A DNA stretch of 64,000 nucleotides from Terriglobia bacterium (GTDB lineage Bacteria; Acidobacteriota; Terriglobia; JAJPHL01; JAPKYU01), in NCBI GenBank assembly GCA_965206645.1, contig CBDBKE010000004.1, forward strand, positions 1,568,001 to 1,632,000, in the 5' to 3' direction. Under the pieces are notes generated by a model. The model was not told where the DNA came from. It did no database searches and saw only the letters and a list, made by a program, of their open reading frames with translations. This document shows positions 27,232-37,908 of the stretch, piece after piece (position 1 is the stretch's first letter; every line of letters starts with the position of its first letter). The position numbers and the translations under genes were made by a program.

Positions 27232-27302
27232 TCCGATGACGCCAGCTTAGGTCTCGATCCTGCCGACAAACCGCCCGCCCCGGTCGTGCTACAGTGGTGG
27301 CA

Positions 27303-28640
27303 ATGCTGGACTTGAATTTTGTACGAAAGAACCTGGACCTAGTAACCCAGAAACTGAGCGCGCGTGGTTTGACCAGCACTGGCCTGGAACGATTTCAGGA
27401 AATAGACACCAAACGCCGGCGGGCACTGACGGAAGTCGAAAAGCTGAAGAACAGACGGAACGAAGCCAGCAAGAAAATTGCACATTTGAAACAGGGCGAG
27501 ACGTTCACCCCATACGGTCCCCAGCCACCGGAGGGACTGAAAGAGCGATTCCGCGAGATGCGAGCGCTCTCCGACCAGATCAAGGAGATGGACGAGCGAG
27601 CGGGAAAGCTGGACGCCGAACTGCAAGAGCTACTGGCGGGCTTGCCGAATGTGCCGCACGAGACCGTGCCCGCCGGCCGCACCCCCGAGGACAACGTGGA
27701 AGTGCGTCGCTGGGGCACGCCGCCGCAGTTTTCCTTCACCCCGCGACCACACTGGGAACTGGGAGAAGCGCTGGGCGTGCTGGACCTGGAGCGCGCGGCT
27801 AAGATCACCGGAGCGCGCTTCGCGGTCTACTGGGATCTGGGCGCGAAGCTGGAACGCGCCCTGCAGAACTTCATGCTCGACCTGCATACGCGCGAGCACG
27901 GCTACCTCGAAGTGCTGCCGCCTGCGATGGTAAATTCCGCCAGCCTGTTCGGAACCGGGCAGTTGCCCAAGTTCGCCGACGACCTGTTTAAGCTCGAAGG
28001 GCACGATCTCTGGCTGACCCCCACGGCCGAGGTGCAGTTGACGAACTTGTTCCGCGACGAAGTGCTGGAGACCGAGCAGCTCCCGATCAAGCTCTGCGCG
28101 TTTACCCCATGCTTCCGCAGCGAGGCGGGAAGCTACGGGAAAGACGTCCGCGGCATTATCCGCCAGCACCAGTTCCAGAAGGTGGAGCTGGTGAAGTTCA
28201 CGCATCCGGAGCGCTCCTACGAGGAGCTGGAAGAGCTGACCCGCAACGCCGAAACCATTCTGCAAGAACTGGGGTTGCACTACCGTGTGGTGGCGCTATG
28301 CACTGGTGACCTGGGCTTCGCCTCCTCCAAGACCTACGACATCGAAGTCTGGACACCGGCTCAGGGCGTCTACCGGGAAATTTCTTCCTGTAGCAATTTT
28401 GAGTCCTACCAGGCGCGGCGCGCCAATTTGCGCTTCCGCCCACGGGCGCGGGGCAAGACCGAATTCGTGCACACCCTGAACGGCAGCGGCCTAGCGATCG
28501 GGCGCACTTGGCTGGCGATCGCGGAAAATTACCAACAGGAAGATGGCTCGGTTCTGCTTCCCGAGGTACTGCGCGGCTACCTGCACGGCGCCGAGCGCAT
28601 TGCCGCCACGGGCAAACTGGTGGGCGCGCGATCCTCCTGA
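27303..28640 (+). CDS. serS: Serine--tRNA ligase
   Basis: [30 protein letters not shown] and TLNGSGLA motifs. Confidence 0.97.
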
Positions 28641-28664
28641 GCCGGTAGTGTCTCAGTTTGAATG

Positions 28665-29708
28665 TTAGCGGCTGCCTGTAAGTTCGTAGTGATCCCGCTC
28701 TTTGTCACACATCCAGGGCGGTTGCCTATTACCCCGGAAACCCGTTCCCGTTTCGGTACTAGCGGGTCCACCAACGGAGCCAGGAATGGGTGCATTGAGT
28801 CTGAACATCTGTGTTCCATTACATCCCGGATGCGTACAAGGTCTTGTTTCATTCTCTGTCGGCATGATCTGTACCTCAACATTCAGTTTACCCAGAAGCG
28901 CGATTTCCTCTAAGTCCCAAACGTGATCGGCAACCCCAGCCTCCATTGCCGGTGTGACCCTGAGCGTCTTGTGGATACGGGCGAAGTTGTAGTACATGAA
29001 GTATAGGGCTAGCGCCGCCGCGTGGTTCTCTAGCTTCTTTGAAAACCCATTGGTCAATCGGGTGAACCTCCTCATGTACATGCGCATCGTGAGGTTCTGC
29101 CGCTCTATGTAGCTCGTGCTTATATGCTTTGGGTGAGGGTTCCCCATGACAACGGTAGGAACCGCACCGATGCACTGTGCGGGACTGTGCCGCTTCTCCT
29201 GCTCGGAATCGGCCCCATACAGTTTGACCAGCATTGCGTAGTCAACGCCCGAACCAAAGGCACCTTCGACAGCGGTTAAATACGCCTTGTGACCGTCCGT
29301 TGTGAGTTGCACGCGATTCGCCAGCCGTCCAGCAAGATCGTCAATGAATTCCTTCGCCGTATGTGCATCGCGTGAACCGAGCCGCCAAGATAGAACTAAC
29401 TTCGTATCCGCATCCATGGCCGTCCAGGTCCACACGTCGCCAGCGTGCCCGCGCTCCAGCATCTTCGGCGTGACGTTCTTTTCCTTCGCATAGACAAAAC
29501 TCCAAATCTCATCGCACTGAATTCGGTTTAGCTTGAGATTACGGAACATGCGGTCCTGAAAGTCGGAGCACGCCGCGCCCACCTCGACCAGCAGCTTCGT
29601 GACGGTGTTGATAGAAACATCGGCCATGCGGCTAGTGGAGCGCAGGCTGCTACCCTCAGCCAACATTCCAAGGATCGCGGTGCGTTTCTGAATTGGTAAG
29701 CGATTCAC
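28665..29708 (-). CDS. IS1-family single-ORF DDE transposase with a Cys/His-containing C-terminal extension
   Basis: N-terminal HTH, QCDEIWSFV, LTTDG and STSYIERQNLTMR motifs. Confidence 0.85.
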   Translation of the reverse strand: MNRLPIQKRTAILGMLAEGSSLRSTSRMADVSINTVTKLLVEVGAACSDFQDRMFRNLKLNRIQCDEIWSFVYAKEKNVTPKMLERGHAGDVWTWTAMDADTKLVLSWRLGSRDAHTAKEFIDDLAGRLANRVQLTTDGHKAYLTAVEGAFGSGVDYAMLVKLYGADSEQEKRHSPAQCIGAVPTVVMGNPHPKHISTSYIERQNLTMRMYMRRFTRLTNGFSKKLENHAAALALYFMYYNFARIHKTLRVTPAMEAGVADHVWDLEEIALLGKLNVEVQIMPTENETRPCTHPGCNGTQMFRLNAPIPGSVGGPASTETGTGFRGNRQPPWMCDKERDHYELTGSR

Positions 29709-29714
29709 GGTCCA

Positions 29715-29743
29715 AGCATAATGAACTCTCCATATTGCGTCAA
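29715..29743 (-). promoter_or_regulatory. Leaderless sigma70 promoter of the transposase
   Basis: TTGACG-N17-TATGCT ending 6 nt before the GTG start. Confidence 0.6.
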
Positions 29744-29782
29744 GCAGTAAGTTCAGTTTAACGCCATCGGTTCAGTAGTGTA

Positions 29783-29811
29783 TTGACATCATTCCCAGGG
29801 CTTGCTATGCT
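29783..29811 (+). promoter_or_regulatory. Sigma70 promoter of the cargo operon
   Basis: TTGACA-N17-TATGCT with extended TG. Confidence 0.7.
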
Positions 29812-29843
29812 CATGCCCGGCGATTTCCCAAGGGCCATGATGA

Positions 29844-30140
29844 ATGGAAGTCAAGTTCAACGACAAAGACTTGGCGCTCATAGAGACAGACCGAGCGGCG
29901 GAGACGCGTCTGCCCGTATCCGTCATCAACTCTTCCAGACGGAAGTTAGTGGTGATTCGGGCGGCACCCGACGAGAGGACGTTAAGAAACTGGAAGAGTC
30001 TTCACTACGAGAAACTGGAGGGCAAGAAGAGCGGACGACGGTCGATCAGGCTGAACGACCAGTGGCGGGTAGTCTTTACTCTCAACACGGACTCCAAGCC
30101 AAACAAGATCACAGTCTTGGCAGTCGAGGACTATCACTGA
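29844..30140 (+). CDS. higB: HigB/RelE-like toxin
   Basis: LHYEKLEG...SIRLNDQWRVVF...VEDYH. Confidence 0.85.
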   Translation: MEVKFNDKDLALIETDRAAETRLPVSVINSSRRKLVVIRAAPDERTLRNWKSLHYEKLEGKKSGRRSIRLNDQWRVVFTLNTDSKPNKITVLAVEDYH

Positions 30141-30151
30141 AGGGGGCAACT

Positions 30152-31285
30152 ATGTCAGCCACGAACGCGAACTGGATTATGCACCCTGGGTTTTACATCA
30201 AGGAGGAGATGGAGGAGCGCGGCTGGCTCCAGCGCGACCTTGCTTTCATACTCGGTTGCCCGGAGCAGGCGGTGAATATGATTCTGTCCGGTAAGCGCGG
30301 AATCAGCCCTGAGATGGCAAAGGCACTCGGCGAGGCATTCGATGTTCCGGCAGAGTTCTTTGCAAATCTCCAGCAGGCCTACGATATGGCGCAGGCACGC
30401 AACCCCGATCCGGGTGTCGCCGTGCGCCGGAACATGCAAAGCACCTACCCCGTGCGGGAAATGATAAAGCGGGGCTGGATCGAGTTGTCCGATCCGGCAC
30501 TTCTTGAGTCTCAGCTTGCGAGGCTCTTTCAAGTTGGGGGCGCAGACAAAATCCCGTATATGGCGCACCCCGCAAAGAAAAGTAGTTATGAAGAGCGAGA
30601 TGTCCCGCCCGCTCAGTTGGCTTGGCTGTTCAGGGTTCGTCAGATAGCCAAGTCAATAAGCGTTCCTCGGTATTCCGAAAGGATGCTACGGCAGGCCCTA
30701 GCCGAAATGGAAACGCTGTTGATCGCCCCGGAGGAGGCTCGGTGTGTACCGCGTATTCTCACGGAGGTTGGAGTCCGTTATGTTCTGGTGGAGAAGCTAC
30801 CGACCGCGAAAATTGACGGCGTGTGCTTCTGGTTGGATGGGCGCTCTCCGGTCATAGGCATGTCCCTACAGCACGACCGAATCGACAATTTTTGGTTTGT
30901 ATTGAGGCACGAGATTGAACATGTCCTCCAGCGGCACGGGCAACAGCAGGAAATAATCGACGCCGACCTTGAAGGGGCAGGCGGCTCTGCGTGGGGTTCT
31001 GTTCCGCGAGAGGAGCAGATCGCAAATGGGGCGGCTGCTAACTTCTGCACCCCCACGGAAAGGCTGGAATCTTTCATCCGGCGCAAGCACCCCTTCTATT
31101 ACGAAAAGGATGTCGTGGCGTTTTCTCGCACTCTAAACCGACATCCTGGCGTTGTGATTGGGCAGCTTCGTCGAAAGCTGGAACGGTACGACTACCTGAC
31201 TCGCTACTTGGTCAAGATTCGACCGTTCGTGGTCTCCGGATCGATTGCAGACGGCTGGGGACAGTTAGCACCAGTTTCTTTGTGA
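30152..31285 (+). CDS. HigA-type HTH antitoxin fused to an ImmA/IrrE (M78) Zn-peptidase domain
   Basis: HPGFYIKEEMEERGW Xre HTH; RIDNFWFVLRHEIEH (HExxH). Confidence 0.85.
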   Translation: MSATNANWIMHPGFYIKEEMEERGWLQRDLAFILGCPEQAVNMILSGKRGISPEMAKALGEAFDVPAEFFANLQQAYDMAQARNPDPGVAVRRNMQSTYPVREMIKRGWIELSDPALLESQLARLFQVGGADKIPYMAHPAKKSSYEERDVPPAQLAWLFRVRQIAKSISVPRYSERMLRQALAEMETLLIAPEEARCVPRILTEVGVRYVLVEKLPTAKIDGVCFWLDGRSPVIGMSLQHDRIDNFWFVLRHEIEHVLQRHGQQQEIIDADLEGAGGSAWGSVPREEQIANGAAANFCTPTERLESFIRRKHPFYYEKDVVAFSRTLNRHPGVVIGQLRRKLERYDYLTRYLVKIRPFVVSGSIADGWGQLAPVSL

Positions 31286-31307
31286 AAGAAAGAATAGAGG
31301 TAGACCG

Positions 31308-31767
31308 ATGGCAACTAAAAACGAACAACTACAGCGGGTTTGGCACCACTACGATAATCGGCAGGCACACAGGCCACTTAGTGCTCGACAGGCTGTTGAA
31401 TGGGCTGTTGCGGAGGGACTGCTAGAACTCCCGGAAACCGATCCCTACGACGTGCTTGCGGGTGAAATGTCACAGGCCCTTCGCGAGGAGTTCCAGACTG
31501 ATGAAGAGGGGCGCAGATACAGGGTCAACCACGCTGTCCGCATTACCAAGAGTGGCGTCCAGCATACCTTCTGGGGGGTTATGGGTTACGCGCCGCACGA
31601 TTACAATGGAGAAGGCTTTCGCACAGCGGCGTGAGCAGGTGGTCGGAGACCTTATGCAGCTCAAGACTGATGTTGATGTCTACAACGACATGAATAAGGG
31701 CAGGAGGCCTCCGATTCAGATTGAACTTGATTTTAGGGACGATGTGGCAGAGCGGCAGCAAGTATAG
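31308..31767 (+). pseudogene. Hypothetical protein split by an apparent 1-bp insertion near 31606
   Basis: GAGGT RBS; ...APHDY|a|MEKAFAQRREQ...; removing one A gives a ~152-aa ORF. Confidence 0.65.
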
Positions 31768-31786
31768 AAGGCTCCGCCCCGCAAGG

Positions 31787-32026
31787 CTACGGTTGTCGCC
31801 TAGACTTCTTCCAGCGAGCCTGAGCTGCTAGCTTAGCGATTTCTTGCCGCTGTTCTGACGTAAGGCGCTTTGCTCTGGCACGTCCGCCCTTCAGACCCCC
31901 AGCTCTCCTCTTAGAAGGCATCTTCTTGGCCTCGCTGAGGGTATCTTCAACCTCACCGGTAGCAATGTCTAGGATCAGCTTGGCTAGCTGGTTTGGATCG
32001 CGTGGGCGCTTTGGACCCCCTTGCAC
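31787..32026 (-). CDS. Small basic protein at the transposon right end
   Basis: KRPRDPNQLAKLILDIATGE...GGLKGGRARAKRLT...ARWKK; -10-like CATACT just upstream (leaderless). Confidence 0.75.
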   Translation of the reverse strand: MQGGPKRPRDPNQLAKLILDIATGEVEDTLSEAKKMPSKRRAGGLKGGRARAKRLTSEQRQEIAKLAAQARWKKSRRQP

Positions 32027-32107
32027 TCTGTCAGTATGCCACGCTTAACAGACCCCCGCCATCCCTAGTCACTCCCAAACTGAGACACTACCCCCGAGCC
32101 AGTCGTG

Positions 32108-32137
32108 TTGCCAATCCTGCCGCACTTTTGCTATATT
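32108..32137 (+). promoter_or_regulatory. Sigma70 promoter of tRNA-Asn
   Basis: TTGCCA-N18-TATATT with extended TG. Confidence 0.6.
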
Positions 32138-32164
32138 GTTTGGTGGTCTTTGCGCCCACCACAT

Positions 32165-32241
<77 letters not shown>

Positions 32242-32531: not shown

Positions 32532-32563
32532 TCCGGTAAGTATCTATTCCGGTAAGTATCTAT
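32532..32563. repeat. 16-bp direct repeat x2
   Basis: TCCGGTAAGTATCTAT in tandem. Confidence 0.85.
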
Positions 32564-32758: not shown

Positions 32759-32962
32759 ATGCCGACCAACGCAAACATCCCACCCTCCCGCGATGAAGTG
32801 ATCGCGGAGATCGCCTCGATCCTGGCCCAAGGCTGCCTGCGCCTCCGGAAGAGTCGACGAATCTCGCCCGAGATTGGGAACGAGGCCGGGAAAGGCAAGT
32901 ATTCTCAGGCGCTTACGGAGAATCGACTTGATCGTTCGGGCCACCGAAGCGTTCATGAATGA
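32759..32962 (+). CDS. Small hypothetical protein upstream of the DUF2924 gene
   Basis: AGGAGG RBS; EVIAEIASILAQGCLRL helix. Confidence 0.6.
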   Translation: MPTNANIPPSRDEVIAEIASILAQGCLRLRKSRRISPEIGNEAGKGKYSQALTENRLDRSGHRSVHE

Positions 32963-33261
32963 ACGAGTTAACGCCCCGAAACGGCAAGGCGGAGGGACCG
33001 CCCGCCAGAGGGTGAGTCCATGAACAGGAGGAAATTGAATGAAAGCAAGCACCTATCAACAGATCGAGATTGGGAACGAGGCCGGGAAAGGCAAGTATTC
33101 TCAGGCGCTTACGGAGAATCGACTTGATCGTTCGGGCCACCGAAGCGTTCATGAATGAACGAGTTAACGCCCCGAAACGGCAAGGCGGAGGGACCGCCCG
33201 CCAGAGGGTGAGTCCATGAACAGGAGGAAATTGAATGAAAGCAAGCACCTATCAACAGATC
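32870..33261. repeat. 196-bp exact tandem duplication
   Basis: 32870-33065 matches 33066-33261. Confidence 0.9.
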
Positions 33262-33767
33262 CAGGAGCTGTCCCGACTGACCGTGGGCCAGCTCCGGGAC
33301 AAGCACCTGGATGTCTTCGGTGAGGAGAGCCGCTGCCACCACAAGGCGGCCCTGCAAAAGCGCATCGCCTGGCGCCTGCAGGCCCTGGCCGAGGGCGGCC
33401 TCTCCGAGCGGGCCCGCCGGCGTGCCGAGGAACTGGCCAACGACGCCGATCTCAGAATGCGCGCCCCGCGTGATCCGATCCGGCCCGGCTCAGCGGAGGT
33501 GAGGGCTCGAACGGCGAAGAGCCGCATCCCGCCCTCGCGAGATCCGCGACTACCCGTGCCCGGCACACTGCTGGTGCGGGAGTTTCGGGGGCGCGACGTG
33601 GTGGTCAAGGTGCTCGATGAGGGCTTCGAGTTCGAGGACCGGCGCTATCCGTCTCTGTCGGCCATCGCCAAGGAAATCACGGGCAGCAAATGGAACGGGT
33701 TCTTGTTCTTCAGCCTCACCGGTGGTGACGCAGCCGCGAGCGGGCGTCACCATCAGGGGGTGAGCGA

Positions 33768-33771
<4 letters not shown>
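33235..33771 (+). CDS. DUF2924 domain protein
   Basis: RIAWRLQALAEGGLS, PGTLLVRE and SLSAIAKEITGSKWNGFLFF motifs. Confidence 0.85.
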
Positions 33772-35324
<1,553 letters not shown>

Positions 35325-35388
35325 CCTGACCGGCACTTTTTGTACCAAGTGGAAAGAGAGAGAATCCACTTGAGGAGGAAGTGAGGTC

Positions 35389-35661
35389 ATGCCGACAAGG
35401 AGTTACAAGCCGGAGCAGATTGTAGCGGTGCTACGGCAGATAGAAGTGCAGATGGGGAACGGGAAGACTGCGCCCCAAAAAGAAGCTGGAATCCACACCC
35501 AAACCTACTACCGGTGGCGGAAGGAATACGGCGGGCTGAAGGTGGTGCAGGCAAAACGGCTAAAGGAGTTGGAGAAGGAAAACACGCGGCTGAAGCGGTT
35601 GGTAGCGGAGCTTTCTCTGGAGAAGCAGGTGCTGCGGGATGTGGCACAGGGAAACTTCTGA
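35389..35661 (+). CDS. IS3 transposase OrfA (6-bp deletion relative to copy A2)
   Basis: HTH plus leucine zipper ELEKENTRLKRL. Confidence 0.9.
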   Translation: MPTRSYKPEQIVAVLRQIEVQMGNGKTAPQKEAGIHTQTYYRWRKEYGGLKVVQAKRLKELEKENTRLKRLVAELSLEKQVLRDVAQGNF

Positions 35662-36587
35662 GCCCTGAGCGGCGGCGTTGTGCGGTGGAGCGTGCGTGGG
35701 AGCAACACGGGTTGTCGGAACGGCATGCCTGCCGGCTGCTGGAGCAATGGCGAGGGACACAACGATACGAGCCGATTCATCGGGTGGACGAGGATGCTCT
35801 GACCCGAGCGATCATTGCCCTGGGAGCGAAGTACGGGCGATATGGCTACCGGAGGATCACAGCGTTGCTGCGGAGTGCGGGCTGGGAAGTGGGCAAGGAC
35901 CGGGTGCAGCGGATTTGGCGGCGGGAAGGGCTGAAAGTGCCGCAAAAACAAAGGCCGCGAGGACGGCTGTGGCTGAACGACGGTTCCTGTGTACGACTGA
36001 GGCCGGAGCGACCGAACCACGTGTGGAGCTACGACTTCATGAGTGCCAGAACGCACGAGGGGAGAACGCTGCGGCTGCTGACCTTGCTGGATGAGTACAC
36101 GCGGGAATGCCTGGCGATCCGGGTGGAGCGGAGGATGGGCAGCCAACAAATCATTGAGGCGTTGTCGGACGTGATGTTGTGGCGAGGGATACCGGAACAG
36201 ATTCGATCCGACAATGGTCCCGAGTTCATCGCCAAACAACTGCGCCAGTGGTTGGCAAATCTAGGGACCGGGACACTGTACATCGAACCGGGCAGTCCCT
36301 GGGAGAACGGGTACTGCGAGAGTTTCAATGGGAAGCTGCGGGACGAATGCCTGAATGGAGAGATCTTCTACTCGTTGAAGGAGGCACAGGTGGTGATTGA
36401 ACAGTGGAGGGTGCAATACAACACGGTGCGGCCGCACTCGGCGCTCGGCTATAGGCCCCCGGCGCCGGGGGCCTATAGCATGATTCGCTCCAGAATTCTG
36501 GTGTTTCGATCTTCGCCGAGTCGCCGGTCCGGGAGTCTGCCTCCCCTGCCACTGAAACCAGTTTCACAGCCCCAGGCTGCGATGTAA
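35658..36587 (+). CDS. IS3 transposase OrfB with a 20-codon insertion
   Basis: WSYDF, RSDNGPEF and ENGYCESFNG motifs. Confidence 0.9.
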   Translation: MSPERRRCAVERAWEQHGLSERHACRLLEQWRGTQRYEPIHRVDEDALTRAIIALGAKYGRYGYRRITALLRSAGWEVGKDRVQRIWRREGLKVPQKQRPRGRLWLNDGSCVRLRPERPNHVWSYDFMSARTHEGRTLRLLTLLDEYTRECLAIRVERRMGSQQIIEALSDVMLWRGIPEQIRSDNGPEFIAKQLRQWLANLGTGTLYIEPGSPWENGYCESFNGKLRDECLNGEIFYSLKEAQVVIEQWRVQYNTVRPHSALGYRPPAPGAYSMIRSRILVFRSSPSRRSGSLPPLPLKPVSQPQAAM

Positions 36588-36649
36588 ACTCTCACTACGG
36601 TTGGTACAAAAAATCGGTCTGGTCACATCGGCTACGGCCCGTGAAGGCG

Positions 36650-37908
36650 TGACGTGACCGGGGGTTTTTGTACCAGGTGGAATAAGAGAGAATTCACCTG
36701 AGAAGGAGCCCCGATCCTGTCGACGAAGAGGTATAAGCCGGAGCAGGTTGTAAACCTCCTCCGGCAGATCGAAGTGGAGACTGCCAACGGGAAGACCACG
36801 CCGCAAGCCTGCCGGGATGCTCAGCTCACGGTGCAGACGTAGTATCGCTGGCGGAAGGAGTTTGGCGGGCTGAAGCTAGACCAAGCGAAGCGGCTGAAGG
36901 AACTCGAGAAAGAGAACTCTCGGCTCAAGCGGTTGGTGGCCGAGCTTTCCCTGGAGAAGCAGGTTTTGCGGGATGTGGCGCAGGGAAACTTGTAAGCCCT
37001 GAGCGGCGGCGTTGTGCGGTAGAGCGTGCGCGGGAGCAACACGGGTTGTCGGAACGGCATGGCTGCCGGCTGCTGGGGCAATGGCGAGGGACACAACGAT
37101 ACGAGCCGAATCCTGTGCTGGACGAAGATGGCCTCACCCGAGCGATCGTTGCCCTGGCGACGCAGTACGGGCGCTACGGCTACCGGAGGATCGCGGCACT
37201 GCTGCGGGGTGCAGGCTGGCCAGTGGGCAAGGATCGGGTGCAGCGGATCTGGCGGCGGGAGGGGCTGAAGGTGCCGCAAAAGCAAAGACCCCGAGGACGA
37301 TTGTGGCTGAATGACGGTTCCTGCGTGCGGCTAAGGCCGGAGCGGCCCAACCACGTGTGGAGTTACGATTTTGTCAGCGGCAGAACCGAGGAGGGGAGAA
37401 AGCTGCGCATCCTGACGCTGATTGATGAATATACGCGGGAATGTCTGGCGCTGCCGGTAGAGCGGCGAATGGGGAGCCGGCAGGTGATTCAGACCTTGTC
37501 GGAGGAGATGCTGTGGAAGGGCATTCCAGAGCACCTTCGCTCTGATAACGGGCCCGAGTTCATTGCCCAACAGCTGCGCCAGTGGCTGGCGAAACTAGGG
37601 ACCGCGACGCTGTACATCGAACCGGGCAGCCCTTGGGAGAACGGATACTGTGAGAGTTTCAATGGGAAGCTGCGGGATGAATGCCTGAATGGAGAAGTCT
37701 TCGACACGTTGTGGGAGGCGAAGGTGTTGGCCGAGAAATGGCGCAGGGAGTACAACCAGCGACGGCCTCACAGCGCCTTGGCCTATCGGCCGCCGGCGCC
37801 GGAGGCCAGATTACCCAGGCCCCAGGCCCAGAGTTCTATCCCATGGAGTGGACTTCAAATGGTCCCAGGTCTAACTTAGAGGGTGGTACCATTCGTGAGA
37901 GCAGGTCA
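36650..37908 (+). mobile_element. Divergent IS3-family element B; orfA defective
   Basis: TG...CA ends; orfA 36717-36995 has a CTG start and TAG at 36840; orfB runs to 37879. Confidence 0.85.

Follow-up and report, generated by a model that had tools for sequence, protein, structure and literature searches.

A probable cargo-carrying IS1-family element with a conserved small second gene between serS and tRNA-Asn of a Terriglobia bacterium

What lies between serS and the tRNA-Asn gene in a 64,000-nucleotide stretch of a Terriglobia bacterium genome (contig CBDBKE010000004.1, positions 1,568,001 to 1,632,000), and did it arrive there as one piece? The whole stretch is referred to here as the window, and positions are given in its coordinates unless another sequence is named. 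A preliminary description of the locus had proposed an IS1-family cargo transposon, possibly of a distinct family, with a fixed transposase and accessory protein and a swappable internal cassette. On the basis of the present analysis, the 3,449-bp insert is very probably an IS1-family transposable element of the transporter insertion sequence (tIS) type, combining one DDE transposase, terminal repeats and internal passengers. Comparison of related sequences further suggests a lineage within the IS1 family that has a conserved accessory protein and the same ends and 8-bp duplications in many phyla.

The limits of the insert are defined by four features:

28636-28643: left copy of the target duplication, CCTGAGCC, which contains the serS stop codon TGA and has its empty counterpart in loci L045 and L046
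28644-28660, plus strand: left terminal inverted repeat, GGTAGTGTCTCAGTTTG (repeat finder; 17 nt, one half of a 100% complementary pair)
32076-32092, plus strand: right terminal inverted repeat, CAAACTGAGACACTACC, pairing with 28644-28660 over 17 nt at 100%
32093-32100: right copy of the target duplication, CCCGAGCC, with one mismatch to the left copy

Both ends start with GGTAGTG, as do ends in relatives, and a perfect 17-mer inverted pair would be expected by chance about 7e-4 times in 4.8 kb by our own arithmetic. The two copies of the target duplication match at 7 of 8 bases; the left one takes in the end of serS (27294-28640), and the right one lies 65 nt ahead of tRNA-Asn (32165-32239) and 8 nt ahead of a promoter-like site (32108-32137). 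The G+C content of the insert (0.52-0.58) is below that of its flanks (0.60-0.68).

An empty serS-tRNA-Asn site, as the preliminary description had envisaged in relatives, was sought via serS in 20 relatives and then by flank comparison, and three congeners were examined. Two of these same-genus genomes (L045 in G002 and L046 in G001) have no insert and a single 8-bp copy, the sequence across the junction being ...CTCCTCCTGAGCC|GGTCGCGTTGCC... In both, the left flank of the window matches positions 2739-2838 and the right flank matches from 2831 onward, that is, with an overlap of exactly 8 nt. In the third congener (L047 in G003) the spacer differs and is uninformative. Because the two flanks abut with an 8-nt overlap in two congeners, the 3,449 bp entered an intact serS/tRNA-Asn spacer as one piece and duplicated 8 bp.

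Six genes and their candidate control sites lie between the repeats, where ORF stands for open reading frame and HTH for helix-turn-helix:

28665-29708, minus strand: single-ORF IS1-type DDE transposase, 347 residues, GTG start (Pfam PF03400; homologue alignment)
29715-29743, minus strand: promoter-like site of the transposase gene, TTGACG-17-TATGCT (scanner), its -10 box ending 6 nt ahead of the GTG start, leaderless-type
29751-29761, minus strand: conserved motif TTAAACTGAAC just upstream of the transposase -35 box, kept in most of 24 upstream regions; candidate operator
29783-29811, plus strand: promoter-like site of the cargo operon, TTGACA-17-TATGCT with TG before the -10 box (scanner, 10 of 12 matches)
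29844-30140, plus strand: HigB-like (RelE-fold) toxin-like protein, 98 residues (Pfam PF05015, E 3.1e-10)
30152-31285, plus strand: fusion of an Xre-type HTH with an M78 (ImmA/IrrE-like) peptidase, 377 residues, with an HEIEH motif (Pfam, NCBIfam, PADLOC)
31308-31634, plus strand: orf108, of no known family, adjoining the HTH-peptidase gene in relatives too (tblastn matches in 38 of 80 loci)
31606-31767, plus strand: orf53, overlapping orf108 in another frame (tblastn matches, with identities reaching 80%, in 36 of 80 loci)
31787-32026, minus strand: small basic protein, 79 residues (ORF list, large-collection search, alignment A1, structure model)
32033-32041, minus strand: extended -10-like box TGGCATACT, 6 nt ahead of the GTG start of the small gene

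This layout agrees with the preliminary description, which had listed perfect 17-bp inverted repeats 3.45 kb apart, an 8-bp duplication with one mismatch (the length of which the empty site confirms), a DDE transposase in a single ORF at the left end and a small basic KRPRDPNQLAK protein at the right end, both on the minus strand, and between them a cargo operon (29844-31767) on the opposite strand with its own promoter. All ORFs that it named are present, and promoter-like sites were detected at the places it indicated.

The transposase matched the Pfam model PF03400 (DDE_Tnp_IS1) at 35.3 bits, above the cut-off of 24.1, and its homologues carry the PGAP label 'IS1 family transposase'. In an alignment of the window protein with 15 homologues (A2, 16 sequences), D66, D138 and E202 are invariant, and the window protein retains every invariant residue; the same alignment shows no conserved N-terminal cysteines. 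There is no insA-insB' frameshift, the 347 residues being encoded in one open frame.

To see how the unit is built elsewhere, we collected 80 loci by similarity to the small protein of the window. They come from Acidobacteriota (Terriglobia, Vicinamibacterales, Bryobacterales, Pyrinomonadaceae), Alphaproteobacteria (Mesorhizobium, Sphingomonas, Sphingobium, Rhodovulum, Caulobacter and others), Burkholderiales, Nitrospirota, Planctomycetota, Polyangiales, Chloroflexota and Actinomycetota. Sixty-eight of the 80 were assessable, with 2 kb or more of sequence beyond the small gene. By scripted tblastn counts, the transposase follows downstream in 62 of these, on the strand of the small gene, and the alignment covers 240 residues or more in 57. 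No transposase was found downstream in the other six assessable loci (L120, L126, L136, L139, L140 and L153). GGTAGTG-type repeat pairs with 8-bp flanks agreeing at no more than two mismatches were identified in 45 of the 80 loci; the duplication is perfect in 43, and the elements measure 2,282-5,011 bp. Seventeen elements could be delimited around transposase homologues (1.8-4.6 kb), 12 of them with perfect 8-bp duplications, in addition to the 7/8 match of the window. The IS1-type character with 8-bp duplications that had been suggested for the window element is borne out. In its relatives, the small gene adjoins one repeat and reads inward, and the opposite repeat contains or meets the end of the transposase gene.

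Two further samples bear on the co-occurrence of the two backbone genes. Among 24 transposase-centred loci (relatives and the window genome), tblastn placed the small protein on the same strand and upstream of the transposase start in 17, and ORF clustering added L064. In a class-wide profile search, the small-protein alignment A1 matched in 71 and the transposase in 88 of 151 genomes of the class; co-occurrence was counted by hand from the two match tables set side by side. Seventy-four A1 matches span most of the model, and 59 of them have a transposase on the same contig and strand 0.08-3 kb downstream (two of these pairs come from genomes marked unpublished, G096 and G105). For the remaining matches, the transposase is in another orientation in two, absent in six, and could not be judged in seven, where transposase rows were unlisted or the contig ended. 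The expectation that transposase and small ORF occur together in homologues therefore held (62 of 68 loci; 59 of 74 in the class). As to whether the small ORF always sits at the distal end, some relatives have the small protein split into two ORFs. In this split variant (L067, L070, L079), a short ORF with the C-terminal motif is divergent from the transposase gene and an ORF with the N-terminal motif lies at the far repeat; the C-terminal motif is found either as such a separate short ORF or fused to a P63C domain. The split variant was also noticed at G068:C2, G008:C6, G103:C262 and G017:C3. Two candidate arrangements were rejected: a cargo-free minimal element at G047:C16, with a 76-bp gap between small gene and transposase, for which clean ends were not found there, and the far repeat of L073 (3,743 bp, no duplication), which is probably foreign, since the small gene occupies 2144-2488 of that span.

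Evidence of movement as a unit comes from a Vicinamibacterales chromosome (OZ252241.1), where three copies with different flanks agree at 99.9-100% across 3,167-3,170 bp, a span that takes in the cargo. Whole units with their cargo thus occur as near-identical copies at different sites of one chromosome. One copy has the perfect duplication GACCAGTG, and the other two have exchanged flanks (GAAGGTGA/TGAACAAG vs TGAACAAG/GAAGGTGA). The latter two loci (L106 at 1308832-1319023 and L109 at 1936475-1946666) are identical inverted copies, and their swapped 8-bp flanks are the pattern expected from recombination between inverted copies, that is, from a chromosomal inversion of about 630 kb.

The small protein is characterized by two motifs, which in the window read RPRDPNQLAKxIxDIATGE and GGxKGGxARAxxLTxEQRxEIAxxAAxARW and in the family alignment A1 read RPRDPNQLAKxIVDIATGE and GGxKGGKARAxxLTPEQRxEIAxxAAxARW. 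It has no family in Pfam, NCBIfam or PADLOC. A search of a collection of 5.8 billion proteins returned 3,694 clusters at E <= 0.001 from 3,748 candidates, with a length of about 73 residues, and relatives in public records are named 'hypothetical' or 'histone H1'; an ESM Atlas search likewise gave only unnamed or 'histone H1' clusters. An AlphaFold model shows four helices (pLDDT 76), and a fold search with it against the PDB gave nothing at E 0.001 or better. A predicted complex of transposase and small protein scored 0.00, which, with controls not run, is evidence neither way. We favor a role as transposition accessory or regulator over that of a histone-like host factor or a part of the cargo, and hold this view with about even confidence. 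It is favored because the gene is consistently located next to one repeat and accompanies the transposase when the cargo changes, and because in the shortest arrangements it stands directly ahead of the transposase gene, as insA does in IS1.

Both minus-strand genes appear to have leaderless-type promoters, as the preliminary description had proposed for them. The region upstream of the transposase has a common layout in 24 elements, TTAAACTGAAYTTTATGC-TTGACA-17 nt-TAnnnT-6 or 7 nt-ATG/GTG, to which 29761-29708 of the window corresponds. At 21 aligned small-gene ends, the repeat is followed by a variable spacer and, in nearly all, by an extended -10 box of the TGnnAnnnT type 6-7 nt before the start. 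The AAACTGA within TTAAACTGAAC recurs as the inner portion of the terminal repeat CAAACTGAGACACTACC, and this repeat-like motif beside the transposase -35 box is probably bound by a repeat-binding protein, to which transposase expression would thereby be coupled. In two metatranscriptome runs of one study, contigs cover the small gene (31739-32019 and 31739-32100) and the stretches 28588-29008 and 28778-29042, a weak hint of transcription, as DNA is possibly present in the libraries. Contigs from RNA libraries were absent from 29640-31655, to which we attach no weight.

The cargo operon of the window was examined for known domains and systems. Its HTH-peptidase fusion matched Pfam HTH_3 (1.4e-10) and Peptidase_M78 (3e-4) as well as TIGR02607 HigA (1.1e-14). 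In PADLOC, it matched component B of PD-lambda-2 (PD-Lambda-2_B, PDLC03982) at E 4.5e-44 over residues 16-353 (338 residues) and RmrA weakly (4.7e-5). No PADLOC model, including that of component A, matched the HigB-like protein even at E 1, and orf108 and orf53 had no match in PADLOC (E up to 1), Pfam or NCBIfam. We infer that the cargo is a relative of the PD-lambda-2 abortive-infection system.

The same module is widespread. HTH-peptidase homologues, aligned over 200 residues or more at 34-72% identity, were identified in 46 of the 80 loci, in every case antisense between the small gene and the transposase gene, and 32 of these loci have the HigB-like gene, 38 orf108 and 36 orf53. In a HigB-less form (14 loci, plus L074), the HTH-peptidase gene lies about 130 bp from the transposase start; on a Mesorhizobium loti plasmid this form is annotated as 'histone H1 / hypothetical / helix-turn-helix domain-containing protein / IS1 family transposase'. 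The presence of one module in one place in 46 of 80 loci from several phyla argues that the six-gene unit is a long-standing cross-phylum type and not a local capture. Fourteen other loci of the 80 have the full transposase and small protein with other, mostly defence-type cargo. These loci together with class relatives contain HEC-04-type ATPases (E 1.3e-44 and 2.7e-52), a PDC-S13/Bro-N protein (1.5e-101), an RmrA-like HTH-peptidase with a partner (L161, E 5.5e-44), a Schlafen/AlbA and HATPase protein with a Clp-like protease, an nSTAND1 NTPase, a DUF5343 protein, P63C proteins with the C-terminal motif of the small protein at their N-terminus, a Fic protein, a trypsin-like protease, a proteasome-like protein, and a HigB-like/HTH/SecB-like trio. 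In L168 (2,510 bp, duplication CAGAAATG) the cargo is located after the transposase. Judged from these comparisons, cargo across the lineage is both old and replaceable.

The idea of a fixed backbone with a swappable cassette therefore needs qualification. The interior does vary among relatives, as proposed, but the cassette of the window is no recent swap, and the architecture is not fixed, because some relatives place cargo after the transposase and others split the small protein in two. Likewise, the IS1-type domain, ends and duplication place the lineage inside the IS1 family, and its standing as a distinct cargo-transposon family was not demonstrated.

How such an element might work can be outlined as follows. 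The transposase, with D66, D138 and E202, would bind the GGTAGTG...CAGTTTG ends and move the unit as IS1 transposases do. Both backbone genes would be transcribed as leaderless mRNAs from -10 boxes 6-7 nt ahead of their start codons. The AAACTGAA motif beside the transposase -35 box, which copies the inner terminal repeat, would be the likely operator, at which either the transposase or the small protein might throttle transposase expression. Since the small protein accompanies the transposase irrespective of cargo, it would most likely be an accessory or regulator of transposition, placed like insA, rather than cargo. The cargo would probably protect the host from phages, make the element addictive, or both. 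A more far-reaching version can be offered only tentatively, and we lean somewhat against it as a whole: the small protein might be a family-defining transposition factor, the leaderless small and transposase genes with the AAACTGAA operator a control circuit that leaves a 'cargo bay', and this one IS1 lineage a cross-phylum defence shuttle, with which transposase-less cassettes having the same ends ride along.

With regard to such cassettes, the window genome contains 55 copies of a related end (GGTAGTGGGTCAGTTTCC..., at most two mismatches to the pattern). Several pairs of them bound segments of 1.4-8.6 kb with 8-bp duplications, two perfect and four at 7/8 (G000:C2:777120-778525, C2:192568-195447, C2:436250-441258, C3:194357-197663, C3:758129-761272 and C4:758246-766860). 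No IS1-type transposase was found in these segments by tblastn; one unit of 1,406 bp holds only a 378-residue ORF and has the duplication AAAGCGAG, and others hold IS21-type or other transposases. They may be transposase-less cassettes mobilised in trans. At G000:C3:191069-194348 and 194357-197663, two different repeat-bounded elements adjoin, with the 8 bp GCCCGTCG before, between and after them, and it looks as if the duplication made by the first had been the target of the second. A sister element of 4,646 bp (G000:C2:14856-19501) has no target duplication and its transposase is in three pieces after an internal insertion; it retains the small protein, and its cargo resembles that of L064 in being of the PDC-S13/Bro-N type.

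Several points weigh against the reading of the window insert as a tIS with a defence-type cargo. The transposase scored 73.2 bits with NCBIfam NF033558 (transpos_IS1), under the cut-off of 100, and matched positions 43-168 of its 199, leaving unmatched the first 42, which we take to be the zinc-finger part. The HigB-like protein, orf108 and orf53 have no PADLOC match, and only one of the three PD-lambda-2 components was recognised. The small protein has neither a family nor a structural match and its DNA binding is putative, and the six assessable loci without a transposase have been mentioned. The window copy is the only full-length one in its genome, and its duplication is mismatched. Its transposase, moreover, carries a 75-residue tail (residues 273-347, about 28665-28892) without counterpart in the other 15 aligned homologues. 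In relatives the protein ends in ...LLAN*, with the stop codon within the terminal repeat, and DNA comparison shows one extra base in the window where relatives stop, so that translation reads on through 75 residues up to the real repeat. A conserved zinc-binding domain in this tail, suggested by tblastn to L086, was rejected: L086 stops inside the repeat and shares only the repeat. Given this unique tail after a 1-nt change, the window copy may be sluggish or dead, its mobility being argued from sequence.

The alternative that survives best concerns this copy: it could be a dead relic that inserted once, was inherited vertically and is now immobile. We regard this as a serious possibility, somewhat short of probable. 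The single copy, the mismatch in the duplication and the altered C-terminus would all fit. So would contigs from two DNA runs of other studies that span 28463-32191 and 29085-32122 and bridge the same junctions with 15 and 14 differences, from which it follows that the same insertion exists in related populations. Yet the transposase ORF is open with all A2 invariant residues kept, the terminal repeats are perfect, and all six ORFs are intact. Contigs of a different kind were seen in runs X17, X4 and X6: one from an RNA library joins 32092 to 28644 with 8 other letters between (depth 37), and in DNA contigs 28662 is connected with 32076 across 2 letters. The former could be a circle junction or abutting elements and the latter a miniature of two repeats only; as only the repeats need match, both types may stem from related elements.

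A second alternative takes the small basic protein for cargo and not for a transposition factor; it would then be a histone-like, nucleoid-associated silencer or some other factor directed at the host. The name 'histone H1' in some public records, the very basic and helical character, the C-terminal motif that recurs in P63C-domain proteins and as a free small ORF, and the 6 of 68 loci without transposase are all consistent with it. We consider it rather unlikely, because the gene has a position fixed beside one repeat and a conserved leaderless-type promoter, and its product accompanies the transposase when the cargo changes.

Less likely still, the HTH-peptidase module might not be passenger DNA but the element's own switch, a self-cleaving repressor bound to the region shared by the two divergent promoters that releases transposase expression on stress or phage infection, comparable with ImmR/ImmA of ICEBs1. 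The module is indeed divergent from the transposase gene, with promoters back to back within about 70 bp, and is retained with the backbone across phyla. In 14 of the 46 module loci no HigB-like gene was found, and the HTH-peptidase gene starts close to the transposase start, for example in L086, L107 and L141. Identities to the window proteins also correlate (Spearman 0.59 between small protein and HTH-peptidase and 0.41 between HTH-peptidase and transposase, n=43), although shared descent alone would produce this. However, the 14 loci with full backbone and unrelated cargo indicate that the module is dispensable for the backbone, and the closest described relative of the HTH-peptidase is a component of a validated defence system. 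Finally, a chance juxtaposition of a short IS1 and a resident toxin-antitoxin locus between coincidental outer repeats, for which only the general rarity of passengers in IS1 elements speaks, is refuted for practical purposes by the empty site that lacks the entire 3,449 bp at once, by the same six-gene unit bounded by repeats and duplications in other phyla, and by the identical copies within OZ252241.1.

Beyond the insert, the region after tRNA-Asn is itself a mobile-DNA hotspot (33235-37879) that precedes a glutamate dehydrogenase gene and contains a DUF2924 protein, a large serine recombinase (33235-35081) and IS3-type (rve) transposases (35514-36587 and 37046-37879). A perfect 196-bp tandem duplication (32869-33261, 2.0 copies, 100% match) and a perfect 16-bp tandem (32532-32563) were also observed there.

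IS1 is the textbook minimal insertion sequence. The boundary between insertion sequences and transposons becomes less sharp with an IS1 lineage that is widespread and combines a fixed second gene with a slot for cargo. As most of the nameable cargo is of defence type (PD-lambda-2-like, HEC-04, PDC-S13, RmrA-like, Schlafen/AlbA and STAND NTPase), these 2-5 kb elements may be among the smallest vehicles that spread anti-phage systems, which would concern soil bacteria, among them Acidobacteriota, Alphaproteobacteria and Nitrospirota. The unit goes unrecognised in public annotation, where its parts are labelled 'IS1 family transposase', 'helix-turn-helix protein' and 'histone H1'. The conserved promoters and the operator-like motif provide testable handles on how the element might control itself.

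Compared with the IS1 family, for which ISfinder gives the consensus ends GGnnnTG and the subgroups classical IS1, single-ORF and ISMhu11, the window element shares the IS1-type DDE domain, the ends (here GGTAGTG), the duplication length (8 bp, against 8-9 bp in the family) and the order of a small gene by the repeat followed by the catalytic gene. Classical IS1 differs in its insA-insB' -1 frameshift and the zinc finger of InsA, neither of which is present here, and in its size of about 0.8 kb against 3.4 kb; Pfam and NCBIfam show no relationship between the small protein and InsA, and unlike classical IS1 the window element has passenger genes between its two backbone genes. ISMhu11-type members in ISfinder may reach about 4.6 kb, in which case long IS1 elements are already on record. 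The portions consulted of the 2021 database paper list no such cargo-carrying forms for the IS1 family, and no description of IS1 elements with this small protein or a PD-lambda-2-like cargo was found in the literature searched.

As to the cargo, PD-lambda-2 was found by functional selection in E. coli; in the part of that report used here (PMC9519451), the first gene is HigB-like, the second encodes an Xre-peptidase fusion whose toxicity on its own is relieved by the first, and defence requires the third component, described as 'related to a P4 phage antitoxin'. The window operon has the same order of a HigB-like gene and then an Xre-HTH and peptidase gene, of which the latter gave the component B match and the former matched in Pfam and not the PADLOC model of component A. 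In place of the third component it has the two small ORFs without match, and it is known from its genes alone. RosmerTA-type proteins (PADLOC RmrA) are of the same Xre-HTH and M78 type, which is represented in the sister element L161, whereas the window protein is far closer to PD-Lambda-2_B. Tn7-like transposons, as far as described in the excerpt of PMC8649781 used, share a cargo rich in defence systems; they are multi-gene machines with targeted insertion, whereas the window element is an insertion sequence with a single transposase and random-looking 8-bp targets. A formal parallel is provided by the tIS of the IS1595 and IS66 families, which, within the definition quoted from the TnCentral preprint, have IS-like ends, one transposase and passengers inside the repeats. 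The window element shares all three and differs in being IS1-type and in having a conserved second backbone gene. Its passengers move with the transposase, as indicated by the empty site that lacks the whole unit and by the three near-identical copies that include the cargo; the cargo is replaceable, and the HTH-peptidase may regulate the transposase promoter.

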